64,000 nt of DNA. Origin: Gemmatimonadota bacterium (GTDB lineage: Bacteria; Gemmatimonadota; Gemmatimonadetes; Gemmatimonadales; GWC2-71-9). The DNA lies in the NCBI GenBank assembly GCA_039930765.1, contig JBDTTF010000185.1:17441-81440 (forward strand), given 5' to 3'. How positions within the stretch are numbered: position 1 is the stretch's first letter; each line of letters starts with the position of its first letter. Below the pieces are notes generated by a model. That model was not told the origin of the DNA. It saw nothing but the letters and a program-made list of their open reading frames with translations, and did not search any database. The translations under genes were made by a program, and so were the position numbers. Shown in pieces: positions 14,123 to 19,141 of the stretch.

Positions 14123-14626
14123 CTAGCTGCGGTAATTCCCGAACTTGAGTTCGATCTCGAAGTCCTGGCTGCGGAGAAAGGCAATGACCGCCTGCAGTTC
14201 ATCACGGTCGGGCGCCGAGACCCGTACTTCTTCACCCTGGATGGAGGACTGGACCTTCTTGAAACCCTGGTCCTTGATGGCCTTCACGATCTTCTTGGCG
14301 ATCTCGCTGGCAATGGCCTGGGTAAGGCCGATGGTTCGGCGCACCGAGCCGGCGGAGCCGACGATCGGATCGCCGATGACGAGGTTCTTGACCGGCACGC
14401 CGCGCTTGGTCAGCTTGCCGCGCACCACGTCGAGCAAAGCTTCCATCCGGAAGTCGTCATCGGCCAGCAGCCGGATCTCGGCCTTCTCGCGGTCGAACTC
14501 GATCTCGCACTTGGTGCCCTTGAAATCGTAGCGCTGGGCGATCTCCTTGTGGGCCTGGTTGACGGCGTTGTCAACCTCCTGGAGGTCGGCGCCGGTCGAG
14601 ATATCGAAGGAAGAGTTGCTGGCCAT
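14123..14626 (-). CDS. yajQ: YajQ family nucleotide (c-di-GMP)-binding protein
   Basis: SFDI, QEVDNAVNQA.KEI.QRYDFKG, IQGEEVRV, RDELQAVI, F.NYR. Confidence 0.95.
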   Translation of the reverse strand: MASNSSFDISTGADLQEVDNAVNQAHKEIAQRYDFKGTKCEIEFDREKAEIRLLADDDFRMEALLDVVRGKLTKRGVPVKNLVIGDPIVGSAGSVRRTIGLTQAIASEIAKKIVKAIKDQGFKKVQSSIQGEEVRVSAPDRDELQAVIAFLRSQDFEIELKFGNYRS

Positions 14627-14709
14627 GGCAGTTCGGAAGGCAGAGGGTGGAAGTAGCACAAATGTATCGGCCTGATCCTCAGGGGAGAAGCGGCGGGCCA
14701 ACTTCCCAC

Positions 14710-14738
14710 TTGACGACCCGCGGGCCAATTCCTACCTT
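14710..14738 (+). promoter_or_regulatory. Sigma70-type promoter of the met operon leader
   Basis: TTGACG-N17-TACCTT immediately upstream of the riboswitch-like element. Confidence 0.7.
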
Positions 14739-14748
14739 GCGAATGCAG

Positions 14749-14816
14749 TAGGCGGTGTATTTAGGGCAACTTGCTCCCGCCTGGGCCTCACGGTCCTACC
14801 AAAGAGCTAAAGCGCC
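14749..14816 (+). ncRNA. SAM-II-like riboswitch aptamer with an extra hairpin
   Basis: P1 AGGCGG/CCGCCT; loop with ATTT and CTTGC; 3' GCTAAAG able to form the pseudoknot; GGC/GCC second pairing; inserted GGGCC-TCAC-GGTCC hairpin; upstream of metY/metX. Confidence 0.7.
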
Positions 14817-14828
14817 GGCAGGTCGTCA

Positions 14829-14866
14829 CCCCCCGCGCGCAGCAAGGCCGGGGGGCCTTTTCTTTC
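14829..14866 (+). terminator. Intrinsic terminator-like hairpin following the aptamer
   Basis: CCCCCCG...CGGGGGG 7-bp stem followed by CCTTTTCTTT. Confidence 0.5.
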
Positions 14867-14873
14867 GGACGGC

Positions 14874-14984
14874 ATGACGAGGTCGCGAATGCTCCGGACG
14901 TCCATGTGTCGCATTGAGATGATTACCAGCTGTCGGCCCTGTCCGGGTCGGCTGCGATCTCGATGTACGCGGATGCCGGGGTAA
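14874..14984 (+). CDS. Putative Met/Cys-rich attenuator leader peptide (36 aa)
   Basis: MTRSRMLRTSMCRIEMITSCRPCPGRLRSRCTRMPG*: 5 Met and 4 Cys; stop lies about 30 nt before a terminator. Confidence 0.55.
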   Translation: MTRSRMLRTSMCRIEMITSCRPCPGRLRSRCTRMPG

Positions 14985-15016
14985 TCACACCCTCGCTCCC
15001 GTTCCCCGACGATCCA

Positions 15017-15055
15017 GTCCCGGCCCTCTCACCTCGAGCGCCGGGATTTTTGTTT
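15017..15055 (+). terminator. Attenuator terminator upstream of metY
   Basis: GTCCCGGC...GCCGGGAT stem followed by TTTTGTTT, 125 nt before the metY ATG. Confidence 0.75.
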
Positions 15056-15167
15056 ACCGGTCTGTCGAGTTCGGGACGCGGCTTCCGATTACTGGACGAG
15101 TACCGCTCACCGGGCAGCCGCCATTTCTCGAATGGCACCCGGCCGATCACCACCGATGACCTGCTGA

Positions 15168-17536
<2,369 letters not shown>

Positions 17537-17567
17537 ACCAGCGGGTCAGAGGTCCGGGGAGATGCCC

Positions 17568-18095
17568 ATGGCTGTGATCGATGAATTGCTCGTGGCCAAC
17601 CGGCGGTTCTCCGGGGCCCAGCCCCAGCACCAACTGCCGATGCCGCCGGCCCGGAAGCTGGCCGCGCTGGCCTGCATGGGTGCCAGGCTCGATCCCGCTC
17701 AGGTCCTGGGGCTGGCCAAAGGAGATGCCCACGTGATCCGCAATCCCGGTGGTCGAGCCAGGGATTCCGTCCGCTCGCTGGTGGTCTCGCAGCGGCTGCC
17801 GGGCACCACGGCAAACGCGGTTGTCCGCCACCCCGATTGCGAGACGCTGACCTTCACCAACCCAACCATCCATGCCAGGATCCAGGATGACCGCTCGGCC
17901 GACGCCAGCGACATGGACTTGCTGCCGTTCGGAAATGTCGAGGTGATTGTGCGAGAGGACCTGGCCCTGCTCCGGTACTCGACGCTGATCACGCCTGACA
18001 CCGAGATCCGGGGGTTCATCTACGACGTCAAGACTGGCGGGCTCTCCGAAGTGGACACGCCTGTTTCCACCCTCACGGCGCACATCACCCGATGA
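17568..18095 (+). CDS. Beta-class carbonic anhydrase homolog (clade D-like) with a degenerate active site; possibly decaying
   Basis: LACMGARLDP (usually CMDARL), GDAHVIRNPGGR (usually NAGG), HPDCE (HxxC Zn ligands), RGFIYDVKTG.L.EV. Confidence 0.75.
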   Translation: MAVIDELLVANRRFSGAQPQHQLPMPPARKLAALACMGARLDPAQVLGLAKGDAHVIRNPGGRARDSVRSLVVSQRLPGTTANAVVRHPDCETLTFTNPTIHARIQDDRSADASDMDLLPFGNVEVIVREDLALLRYSTLITPDTEIRGFIYDVKTGGLSEVDTPVSTLTAHITR

Positions 18096-19141
18096 CCGCA
18101 TCGGCCGCAATCCCCACGCAGACCGGAGATCTCCGCCTGGGGGCTTTCCGAACGGTCGGTGGCCAGCTGCTGCCCGACGCGCGGCTGCGCTATCGGGTGC
18201 TCGGAGATCCGGCCCTCGGCGCTGAGCGGGGCTGGAACCTGGTGTTCCACGCCCTCACCGGAAGTCATGAAGTGGACAGCTGGTGGGCCCCGCTTCTGGC
18301 GCCAGGTGCCGCGCTCGACCCGGCCTATCGCCCGCTGGTCGCCGCCAATCTGCTGGGAAGCTGCTATGGCTCAACCGGACCCTCTCCCGCCAGCTGGACG
18401 CACTCGACCCCCTTCCCTGACCTCACCACGACCGATCTCGCCCTGGCGCATGCTCCGCTGCTCACCCACCTGGGTGTCACCCGGCTGGCCCTGGCCACCG
18501 GTGGCTCACTGGGAGGAATGGTGGCGCTGGAGTGGGCCCGGCTCGCGACGGTGCCGACCGACCGCGTCGTCGTCCTGGCCGCGCCGGCCTTCAGCTCGGC
18601 GCAGTCGATCGGGTGGAATGCCGCGCAGCGAATGGCCATCGAAGCGGATCCGGCCTGGCGGGGTGGACGGTACGCAGAGGGGCAGGCACCGCGGGCGGGA
18701 CTCGCCGCCGCCCGTGCCATCGCCATGATCACCTACCGCTCGGCTCTCGAGTTCGGTCAGCGGTTCGGCCGCCGGACCGACCGAGGTGGGAAGTACGCCT
18801 TCGATGTCGAGGGTTACCTGCGCTACCAGGGGGACAAGCTGGTCGACCGGTTCGATGCGGCCAGTTACGTGCACCTGACCCGGATCATGGACAGCCACGA
18901 TGTGGGATCAATCGAACTGGCGGCCAGGGCCACCGCCGAACGGGTGGGCCAGCTGGTCGGTGTCGGGATCGACACCGACATCCTGTATGCGGCAACTGAG
19001 ATACGTGACTGGGTGGCGGCCTATCAAGCGGCGGGGGGTCCGGCAACGTACCGGGAAATCACAACAGCCTACGGCCACGACGCCTTCCTGATTGAATGGG
19101 ATCAGCTGGCGGCCATCCTGCGTGATCCGGAGCGGCGCTAG
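18092..19141 (+). CDS. metX: Homoserine O-acyltransferase
   Basis: FHALTG, NLLGSCYGSTGP, GGSLGG nucleophile, GLAAARAIAM.TYRS, RFDA.SY, GHDAFL. Confidence 0.92.
   Translation: MTASAAIPTQTGDLRLGAFRTVGGQLLPDARLRYRVLGDPALGAERGWNLVFHALTGSHEVDSWWAPLLAPGAALDPAYRPLVAANLLGSCYGSTGPSPASWTHSTPFPDLTTTDLALAHAPLLTHLGVTRLALATGGSLGGMVALEWARLATVPTDRVVVLAAPAFSSAQSIGWNAAQRMAIEADPAWRGGRYAEGQAPRAGLAAARAIAMITYRSALEFGQRFGRRTDRGGKYAFDVEGYLRYQGDKLVDRFDAASYVHLTRIMDSHDVGSIELAARATAERVGQLVGVGIDTDILYAATEIRDWVAAYQAAGGPATYREITTAYGHDAFLIEWDQLAAILRDPERR

Follow-up and report, generated by a model that had tools for sequence, protein, structure and literature searches.

What decides whether the methionine genes of an uncultured soil bacterium of the Gemmatimonadota are transcribed? 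The question is raised by the leader of metY, the gene for O-acetylhomoserine sulfhydrylase (homocysteine synthase), in a stretch of 64,000 nucleotides (nt) from contig JBDTTF010000185.1 of assembly GCA_039930765.1 (positions 17,441 to 81,440 of the forward strand). This whole stretch is called the window here; positions are counted from its first letter, and features lie on its plus strand unless stated otherwise. The leader is the 553-nt gap at 14627-15179 between metY and a divergent yajQ-like gene. A sequence-only reading of positions 14874-15055 had proposed that a short open reading frame (ORF) rich in Met and Cys codons is the leader peptide of a trp-type attenuator, set in tandem with a riboswitch.

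The comparison of this leader with related loci leads to the reading, to which a probability of about 0.7 is assigned, that metY is preceded by two transcription-termination switches in series: an aptamer of the SAM-II type, named for S-adenosylmethionine (SAM), followed by a Cys/Met leader-peptide attenuator. The two modules are referred to as element 1 with its terminator 1, and as the leader ORF with its terminator 2.

Conservation of the leader layout

Related loci that were compared with the window carry labels such as L003. Among 41 related genomes searched by blastn with the leader, 10 gave a match, the window's own genome being one of them; inside the genus the match spanned the entire leader, and in other genera it covered only about 14748-14865, which includes element 1. 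Nine intergenic regions were compared, and every one had, 3' of the conserved block, a short frame rich in Cys and Met as well as a further terminator. A pattern derived from the conserved block then recovered 84 stretches from a collection of species-representative genomes. Among the matches listed (80 of the 84), all are titled as metagenome-assembled genomes (MAGs) of Gemmatimonadota, Gemmatimonadales or Gemmatimonadaceae, and the carriers among them are uncultured throughout.

The pattern was present at 93 loci, 78 of which have metY downstream by tblastn; after the removal of eight duplicates, 70 distinct metY leaders remained. In 69 of these 70 the computed layout is the same, with element 1 and terminator 1, the Cys/Met-rich ORF, terminator 2 and metY following each other in that order. 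A promoter-like site of the form TTGACN-N16-18-TANNNT stands before them, at the place equivalent to that in the window, in 65/70. The exception to the layout, L062, has element 1 alone, with metY 129 nt further on. At nine other loci (L015, L025, L031, L039, L043, L049, L050, L060 and L072; at about 870-1020 in each) element 1 and terminator 1 directly precede a MetX-like ORF, with no space left for a leader ORF; the MetX identity was supported by NCBIfam for L015 only, and L080 was cut off. A full two-module leader is found in L075 ahead of an aspartate-kinase-like gene. The two modules are separable units, as judged from their arrangement across loci, because element 1 and terminator 1 occur alone before metX-like genes (the nine loci) and before metY (L062).

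The leader ORF

In the window, the ORF at 14874-14984 encodes MTRSRMLRTSMCRIEMITSCRPCPGRLRSRCTRMPG* in 36 codons, with Met at 1, 6, 11, 16 and 34 and Cys at 12, 20, 23 and 31, each of them TGT (numbering from 14874); the Met positions and the four TGT codons, given in the sequence-only reading, were borne out by reading and translating the frame. The ATG at 14889, in the same frame, is likely the true start rather than 14874, because a Shine-Dalgarno (SD) sequence GAGG (14879-14882) lies 6 nt before it, and L003 and L004 are arranged likewise. The preferred ORF, 14889-14984, would therefore encode 31 amino acids, MLRTSMCRIEMITSCRPCPGRLRSRCTRMPG, with four Cys and four Met. The SD had been described as weak, which is not so with this start. 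The regulatory codon zone extends over 14904-14942 and contains Met11 (14904), Cys12 (14907), Met16 (14919), Cys20 (14931) and Cys23 (14940).

The codon composition of the ORF exceeds chance and is far from the genome background. A start was assigned by a heuristic in 66/69 leaders (44 ATG, 21 GTG and one TTG); it gave no start for L005, L047 and L054, for which inspection by eye indicated a GTG with an SD, an ATG beyond the extract, and a start at the Met of M-C, respectively. The 66 peptides have a median length of 32 amino acids (range 21-47) and contain 15.1% Cys, 9.8% Met and 14.6% Arg, compared with a background of 0.79% Cys and 1.78% Met in genome ORFs of at least 300 amino acids. Their Cys codons comprise 170 TGC and 152 TGT, with TGT making up 21% of Cys codons in the genome background, and the number of Cys per peptide ranges from 1 to 9. 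An SD-like site was found 4-12 nt before the start in 44/66 leader ORFs. Where an SD-preceded ATG or GTG occurs within 36 nt 5' of the Cys cluster, it shares the frame of the cluster in 51 of 55 cases, and the same holds for 48 of 52 upstream ATG codons, the chance expectation being one third.

Conservation changes in kind along the ORF. The conserved nucleotide block GGGGTGGAC is read as ...R-G-V-D... in one group of leaders and as ...T-G-W-T... in another. By this comparison, what is preserved in the first third of the ORF is the codons, and in the rest it is the RNA, since the block is conserved yet read in different frames. Such a combination of a codon-kept start and an RNA-kept remainder fits a sensor ORF and argues against a functional peptide. 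Pfam holds no family matching the leader peptide. Two pairs of loci show frame changes at close range: between L069 and L070 a one-base frameshift after the Cys cluster alters the whole C-terminus and the position of the stop, and between L017 and L009 a single-base frameshift before the cluster puts the upstream ATG out of frame, with the nucleotides conserved.

Alternative helices of the proposed attenuator

Three mutually alternative helices were computed for the second module. Region 1 (14932-14939, GTCGGCCC) overlaps the Cys20 codon and pairs with 14945-52 in both the local and the full minimum free energy (MFE) structure. Region 2 (14944-14960, GGGTCGGCTGCGAT...), the 5' strand of the predicted antiterminator, is homologous to GGGGTGGACNG.GCC of the relatives and lies in the conserved block of alignment A2, described below. 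Its partner, region 3 (15010-15030), consists of the 5' flank and the 5' arm of terminator 2. Terminator 2 itself occupies 15016-15055, the place at which a terminator had been claimed, with the stem 15016-24/15040-48, an inner CTC/GAG and the T tract TTTTTGTTT at 15047-55. Its hairpin (15016-15048) has a folding energy of -19.6 to -20.2 kcal/mol, and it was missed by a consensus scanner, whose limit is exceeded by the 15-nt loop region. Strict terminator detection lost many U-poor tails, so relaxed criteria were used for the counts; with these, a homologue of terminator 2 is found in 69/69 ORF-bearing leaders, at -19 to -36 kcal/mol and 10-45 nt past the stop codon.

Alignment A2 holds 68 of the 69 leaders (L051 was left out), which fall into 27 clusters at <70% nucleotide identity. 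On this alignment the terminator helix (3:4) is paired in 95% of cells, and 56 cells carry compensatory changes on both sides. The antiterminator helix (2:3) comprises 13 pairs and is paired in 87.5% of cells, compared with 28-53% when the strands are slid against each other; six of its pairs have changed on both sides, and none of 500 shuffles reaches its covariation score. As an example of this covariation, L068 has GAGGUGGGC opposite GCCCACCUC, and the large group of leaders has GGGGUGGAC opposite GUUCACCC. The short Cys/Met-rich ORF and the compensatory stem changes, for which a check in relatives had been proposed, are thus found in 69/70 leaders for the ORF and in both the 2:3 and the 3:4 helix for covariation.

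For most leaders from other genera, no upstream segment pairs better with the 5' half of the terminator than the conserved block does. A large group of leaders has GGGGUGGACUG.GCC opposite GGC.CGGUUCACCC, a pairing worth about -24 kcal/mol, versus about -17 to -18 kcal/mol for dinucleotide shuffles. Taken leader by leader, the 2:3 duplex was matched or bettered by at most 5 of 100 dinucleotide shuffles in 37/69. Folds of the segment bounded by the Cys cluster and the 3' end of region 2 gave the 1:2 hairpin in 68/68 leaders, a C-rich strand further upstream pairing with the G-run of region 2. This strand, region 1, has its start within 0-2 nt of where the last Cys or Met codon starts in 61/68, and the ORF runs on for about 29 nt (median) beyond region 2.

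A short motif is also conserved about 20 nt 5' of terminator 2 across groups (L014-L093), for example GACGACCGAGG; the same motif is present in the window at 15008-15017 (GACGATCCAG). It lengthens the predicted antiterminator to about 24 nt in several leaders (L024, -31.5 kcal/mol).

The attenuation scheme of the trp type proposed in the sequence-only reading is retained by these results insofar as 1:2, 2:3 and 3:4 helices are conserved, but the stems named for it are neither favoured nor conserved. It had named a pairing of TGATTACC (14920-27) with GGTAATCA (14980-87) as the 1:2 stem and a pairing of GCCGGGG (14975-81) with TCCCGGC (15018-24) as the antiterminator. The former two segments are indeed exact reverse complements, and the latter can pair with six Watson-Crick pairs and one G-U. 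The likely operative stems are instead 14932-39:14945-52 and 14944-60:15010-27.

Folding with a ribosome on the leader

The stretch 14874-15056 of the window folds at -84 kcal/mol with z = -4.48, and none of 200 shuffles folds as well. This fold of the second module consists of terminator 2 and a single long hairpin, in which the two halves of the ORF pair with each other; the apex of the hairpin is GUCGGCCC (14932-39) with GGGUCGGC (14945-52). Both candidate starts and the SD lie inside a self-complementary hairpin at 14874-14999, and in free RNA this long hairpin would make the SD inaccessible, unless a ribosome loads during transcription.

For the scan of ribosome positions, each leader, ending at the terminator loop, was folded with a ribosome footprint of 28 nt (from -15 to +12 around the A site) shifted one codon at a time, and the probability that the 5' arm of the terminator pairs with region 2 was read out. 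A measure of any upstream pairing was dropped, as its baselines reached up to 0.9 and G+C-rich RNA pairs promiscuously; in the window, total upstream pairing with a different 5' end was high (0.54-0.76), and the region-specific signal was clean. Across the leaders, the 2:3 probability was <0.1 without a ribosome in 54/68, reached 0.5 or more in 65/68 when the A site was within the cluster, and was <0.1 with the ribosome at the stop in 52/68; all three conditions of a switch coincided in 47/68. Of 656 codons at responsive positions, 305 specify Cys or Met, versus 176 of 1481 elsewhere.

In the window, the 2:3 probability was 0 without a ribosome, 0.70 with the A site at 14925 (Thr18) and 0.75 at 14931 (Cys20); it was 0.10-0.37 at Met11, Cys12, Arg13 and Met16, and 0 from Arg21 (14934) to the stop. 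The duplex of region 2 with 15010-27 has an energy of -21.8 kcal/mol. With respect to the Met and Cys sensing that had been proposed, the enrichment in Cys and Met codons is real, but in the window the position predicted to respond is taken up by Cys20 and its neighbours only.

From these computed positions, we infer how ribosome stalling may operate the second switch (14879-15055), a putative ribosome-mediated attenuator in which the 31-codon ORF leads the ribosome through the Met/Cys cluster. When Cys-tRNA, and probably also Met-tRNA, is scarce, the ribosome would stall in the cluster, in the window best with Cys20 (TGT, 14931) in the A site. In that state it would cover region 1 (14932-39) and leave region 2 (14944-60) free for 15010-27, and with that pairing in place RNA polymerase would read into metY. 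Without a ribosome, region 1 would hold region 2 and terminator 2 would form; a ribosome that reaches the stop (14982) would cover region 2, and terminator 2 would form again. Upstream of this, in the first switch (14751-14865), binding of SAM or a close relative would presumably cause termination at terminator 1. With the two terminators in series, full expression would need low SAM together with poorly charged Cys/Met tRNA, if this model of the gate holds.

The upstream SAM-II-like element

Element 1 is a predicted SAM-II-like pseudoknot aptamer with its conserved core at 14751-14816. It comprises the helix P1 (GGCGG 14751-55 with CCGCC 14777-81), a U-rich L1, the loop strand GGGCAACTTGCT and the 3' strand CAAAGAGCTAAAGCGCC at 14800-16, the last preceded by a variable hairpin at 14782-98. 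The core, GGCGG-N-GATTTA-N-GGCCACTTGCT(C/A)CCGCC, followed by the variable hairpin and CAAAGAGCTAAAG(C/A)GCC, is near-invariant over 81 distinct copies. Both GGCGG and CCGCC are present in 81/81; the P1 pairing of 65.7% in the alignment is due to a one-column MAFFT shift, the letters being intact in all copies. The loop-to-tail helix found by RNAalifold has nine pairs, with 100% of cells paired and every pair invariant, and the variable hairpin and the terminator 1 stem covary. Terminator 1 follows with a hairpin at 14829-14855 and a T tract at 14858-65 (-19.8 kcal/mol), and a comparable hairpin with a T-rich tail lies 3' of element 1 in 79/81 copies. The genome of the window contains element 1 once.

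Searched against Rfam, the window gave no match to element 1, even at E <= 10; weak matches to small RNA families (sX13, Atu_C7) were rejected, as they covered only the terminator hairpin. The Rfam model of SAM-II with a long loop matches element 1 in the relatives L096 and L097 below threshold. For L096, RF01726 gives 18.8 bits where the gathering score is 44 (E = 0.16 on searching 161 nt), and the match to SAM_alpha (RF00521) is weaker, at 14.5 bits versus a gathering score of 36. The alignment of L096 to RF01726 spans model positions 1-60, including the P1 stem, GAUUU, UUGC and GCUAAAG; the window's copy of these core letters is at 14759-63 (ATTTA, the preceding base being T and not G), 14771-74 and 14806-12. 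Element 1 therefore has the appearance of a lineage-restricted, divergent riboswitch of the SAM-II type lying under the thresholds of Rfam. It is best described as a putative divergent SAM-II-type aptamer, and SAM is its presumed ligand in view of the sub-threshold resemblance to SAM-II and of the metX/metY genes downstream. The riboswitch that the sequence-only reading took to lie upstream is hence borne out as a separate conserved element with its own terminator, but it has no Rfam match in the window and is SAM-II-like only.

The promoter-like site of the window lies at 14710-14738, with a -35 box TTGACG (14710-15), a 17-nt spacer and a -10 box TACCTT (14733-38). Conservation is the one ground for calling it a putative promoter; a consensus scanner run on the window's leader listed no promoter, and of the terminators it listed only (part of) terminator 1.

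Genomic context and sulfur metabolism

The yajQ-like gene at the 5' border of the leader (14123-14626, minus strand) matches NF003819 with 191.8 bits. The first gene of the operon is metY (15180-16508; TIGR01326, 668.8 bits, over the cut-off), and it is followed by an aspartate-kinase-like gene (16505-17536), an ORF that matches no NCBIfam family (17385-18095) and a metX-like gene (18092-19141). Both the aspartate-kinase-like and the metX-like gene remain under the equivalog cut-off of NCBIfam, and the former is a partial match only (343 amino acids, 179 bits versus a cut-off of 376). The spacer between terminator 2 and metY shows no unusual structure (15056-15182, z = -0.40), and no feature was seen on inspection of 15056-15179. 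The distance from terminator 2 to metY is 126-144 nt in three of the four leaders of the window's genus; it is 47 nt in L004, and with L004 and the other genera taken together it is 22-77 nt, mostly 22-57 nt.

The genome of the window is a Gemmatimonadales MAG of 65.8% G+C in 335 contigs, with an estimated completeness of 100%. A scan of it for other short Cys/Met-dense frames returned 78 candidates that were inseparable from out-of-frame noise within genes. A search for sequencing runs listed seven, and no RNA run covering the locus was among them. No match at the cut-off was found in this genome for cysK (best 310 bits versus 351) or for cysE (best 37 bits). The best CysK-like gene (L098:824-2212, minus strand) encodes 462 amino acids and aligns end to end with the cystathionine beta-synthase (CBS) family TIGR01137, at 482.9 bits versus a cut-off of 510. 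This gene content suggests that cysteine is made from homocysteine in this genome, and homocysteine made by MetY would then probably be the source of both cysteine and methionine. Cys codons in a methionine leader would make sense in such a genome, because it seems to be without CysE and CysK and to have a CBS-like gene.

Alternative explanations

The stems named in the sequence-only reading are unlikely to be those of the attenuator. Both of their complementarities are present in the window, the terminal segment of the ORF can, by eye, also pair with the terminator arm in shifted registers in L002-L004, and a ribosome at the stop would cover that segment, as suits the classical scheme. However, the two duplexes amount to -11.6 and -15.4 kcal/mol, versus -21.8 kcal/mol for region 2 with the terminator flank, and the pairing of 14968-14992 with the terminator arm has a probability of 0.0 in all 17 ribosome states tested. 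In the MFE structure the segment named as antiterminator is held elsewhere, 14976-83 pairing with 14890-97, and 14921-28 stays single-stranded. In other genera the region of the stop codon lacks this complementarity; region 2, by contrast, is conserved throughout the groups. It is similarly improbable that 14874-15055 is a second structured RNA that binds a ligand or a protein and has its own terminator, with the frame as a by-product of G+C content. The stretch is strongly structured, as its z-score indicates; at 66% G+C, where about 2% of codons would be stops by a composition estimate, frames that stay open for 30-45 codons are no rarity; and the 3' half is conserved as RNA and not as peptide. 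Yet the SD-led starts fall in the frame of the cluster, that very frame is enriched about 19-fold in Cys and about 5-fold in Met, and the alternation of TGT and TGC at Cys positions speaks against a plain UGU motif. The structure moreover sets the Cys codons exactly against region 1, and no Rfam family matches 14874-15055, which counts against a ligand-binding RNA.

Peptides of 30 amino acids rich in Cys can be functional, and the M-C-C-R-I core is conserved here, so the ORF could in principle encode a metal or redox micropeptide, or the precursor of one, that is co-transcribed with metY and senses nothing. This is very improbable: the C-terminal two thirds shift frame between lineages and even between close relatives, the Cys count varies from 1 to 9 with no Pfam family assigned, and the ORF always lies between two terminators directly before metY. 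The ORF might, on the other hand, sense Cys and Met and act mainly through Rho, mRNA stability or metY translation, with terminator 2 being secondary. Mycobacterial polycysteine short ORFs are described as acting on translation by unmasking a ribosome-binding site, in the part of the preprint consulted (bioRxiv 10.1101/834739); several terminator 2 tails are U-poor; and terminator 2 lies 126-144 nt from metY in three of the four genus leaders. There is little probability in this explanation, however, given that a strong, covarying, G+C-rich hairpin with a T-rich tail is present in 69/69 leaders, that in most leaders the SD of metY itself is found outside the hairpin, 22-57 nt further downstream, and that the conserved alternative pairing aims at the terminator arm and not at the metY SD.

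The reading as two termination switches in series is weakened on several counts. The relatives are all MAGs of one order, so their counts are not independent, and this independence is further overstated by the use of related sequences with a structure derived from one of them. The scan applies equilibrium folding to a kinetic process, on a truncated RNA and with an assumed footprint; 14/68 leaders are predicted to form the antiterminator without any ribosome, and three never reach 0.5. Only one Cys codon of the window (Cys20) is fully responsive, and a stall at Met16 would be ineffective (0.10). In leaders of the window's genus, region 2 and the terminator form a duplex no better than that of shuffled sequences (z about -0.3 to 0; window -0.28), and the homologous 2:3 columns pair at 11 of 13 positions in the window, with two internal mismatches; by sequence comparison, the antiterminator in this genus is based on homology more than on its own statistics. 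Some terminator 2 tails, such as TTTCGCAT, are poor in U. An SD-like site at 4-12 nt is not found in 22/66 leaders, and in one group of leaders the SD is 11-12 nt from the start. For element 1, both core helices are invariant, so that covariation cannot test them, and its score is under the Rfam gathering threshold for SAM-II. The absence of cysE and cysK is read from an assembly in 335 contigs.

Comparison with known systems

Classical leader-peptide attenuators are those of the trp, his, leu, thr, pheA and ilv operons of Proteobacteria. The metY leader resembles them in its short SD-led ORF with codons for the pathway products, in a region 1 that overlaps or abuts those codons, in mutually exclusive 1:2, 2:3 and 3:4 helices, and in an intrinsic terminator just before the first gene. 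It differs in that Cys and Met would be sensed together, by interleaved codons and not a single run, and in that the host belongs to the Gemmatimonadota, the ORF extends past region 2, and the attenuator is set behind a riboswitch-type terminator.

Leader ORFs with Cys codons have been predicted before cys and cbs genes in Actinobacteria, and those of Mycobacterium are without conserved terminator hairpins, according to the part of that report consulted (PMC1262725). In Mycobacterium smegmatis, leaderless polycysteine ORFs unmask the ribosome-binding site, as the portion of the preprint cited above has it. In common with such actinobacterial leaders, so far as these excerpts describe them, several Cys codons precede genes of sulfur amino acid metabolism and ribosome stalling is the sensor that is proposed or demonstrated, here proposed. 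Relative to the mycobacterial ORFs of those excerpts, the ORF here is SD-led, has Met codons mixed in, is coupled to a terminator and antiterminator, guards metY and has a riboswitch-like partner; it lies more than 130 nt 3' of the promoter-like site and behind element 1, and it is thus not leaderless as the mycobacterial class is.

The first module shares P1, GAUUU, UUGC, GCUAAAG, a hairpin in a long loop and genes of the metX/metY type with SAM-II (RF00521, RF01726), but its score is sub-threshold, and among the matches listed it occurs only in Gemmatimonadota records. For metZ of Sinorhizobium meliloti, the consulted part of PMC9373788 reports a SAM-II riboswitch that forms a terminator. 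With regard to mixed signals, the mgtA leader of Salmonella has a short ORF embedded in a riboswitch. The mgtCBR leader is reported as a further example of combined sensors in one leader (PMC3641672). Like these, the metY leader would combine a small-molecule signal with an amino acid signal sensed by the ribosome; unlike mgtA, its modules are physically apart and each carries a terminator of its own, and in relatives they are found independently of each other. A SAM-I riboswitch of Xanthomonas campestris responds also to uncharged initiator tRNA, by the consulted text of PMC7270179, and it likewise places methionine synthesis under SAM and tRNA-charging signals. Whereas in that system, as far as the same text goes, one RNA takes both signals and acts mainly on translation, the charging signal would here be read by a ribosome on an ORF.

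A term search of a tandem-riboswitch review (PMC9481103) found no mention of "leader peptide", "uORF" or "attenuat". Full-text searching of the open-access literature found no paper with both Gemmatimon* and SAM-II, and nothing resembling this Met- and Cys-codon leader was found in it, subscription-only papers lying outside the scope of the search.

Implications

Combined with the metabolic rationale, these comparisons lead to a broader proposal that we consider evenly balanced between being right and wrong. It holds that the Gemmatimonadales guard their only sulfur-assimilating step, that of MetY, which would feed methionine and, via cystathionine, cysteine, by an undescribed two-sensor leader. 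This leader would consist of a lineage-specific divergent riboswitch of the SAM-II type and a new class of attenuator that reads the charging of Cys-tRNA and Met-tRNA, the two acting as an AND gate in series. Such regulation would be tied to the metabolism of the organism, as Cys codons fit a genome that seemingly makes its cysteine from homocysteine.

If confirmed, the leader would extend classical attenuation by terminator and antiterminator to the sulfur amino acids, and to the Gemmatimonadota, a phylum in which almost no gene regulation has been studied. It would also add a subclass of SAM-II-like aptamers beneath the current Rfam thresholds, and it would provide a clean natural case of a riboswitch and a leader-peptide attenuator that are combined as separable modules in series.

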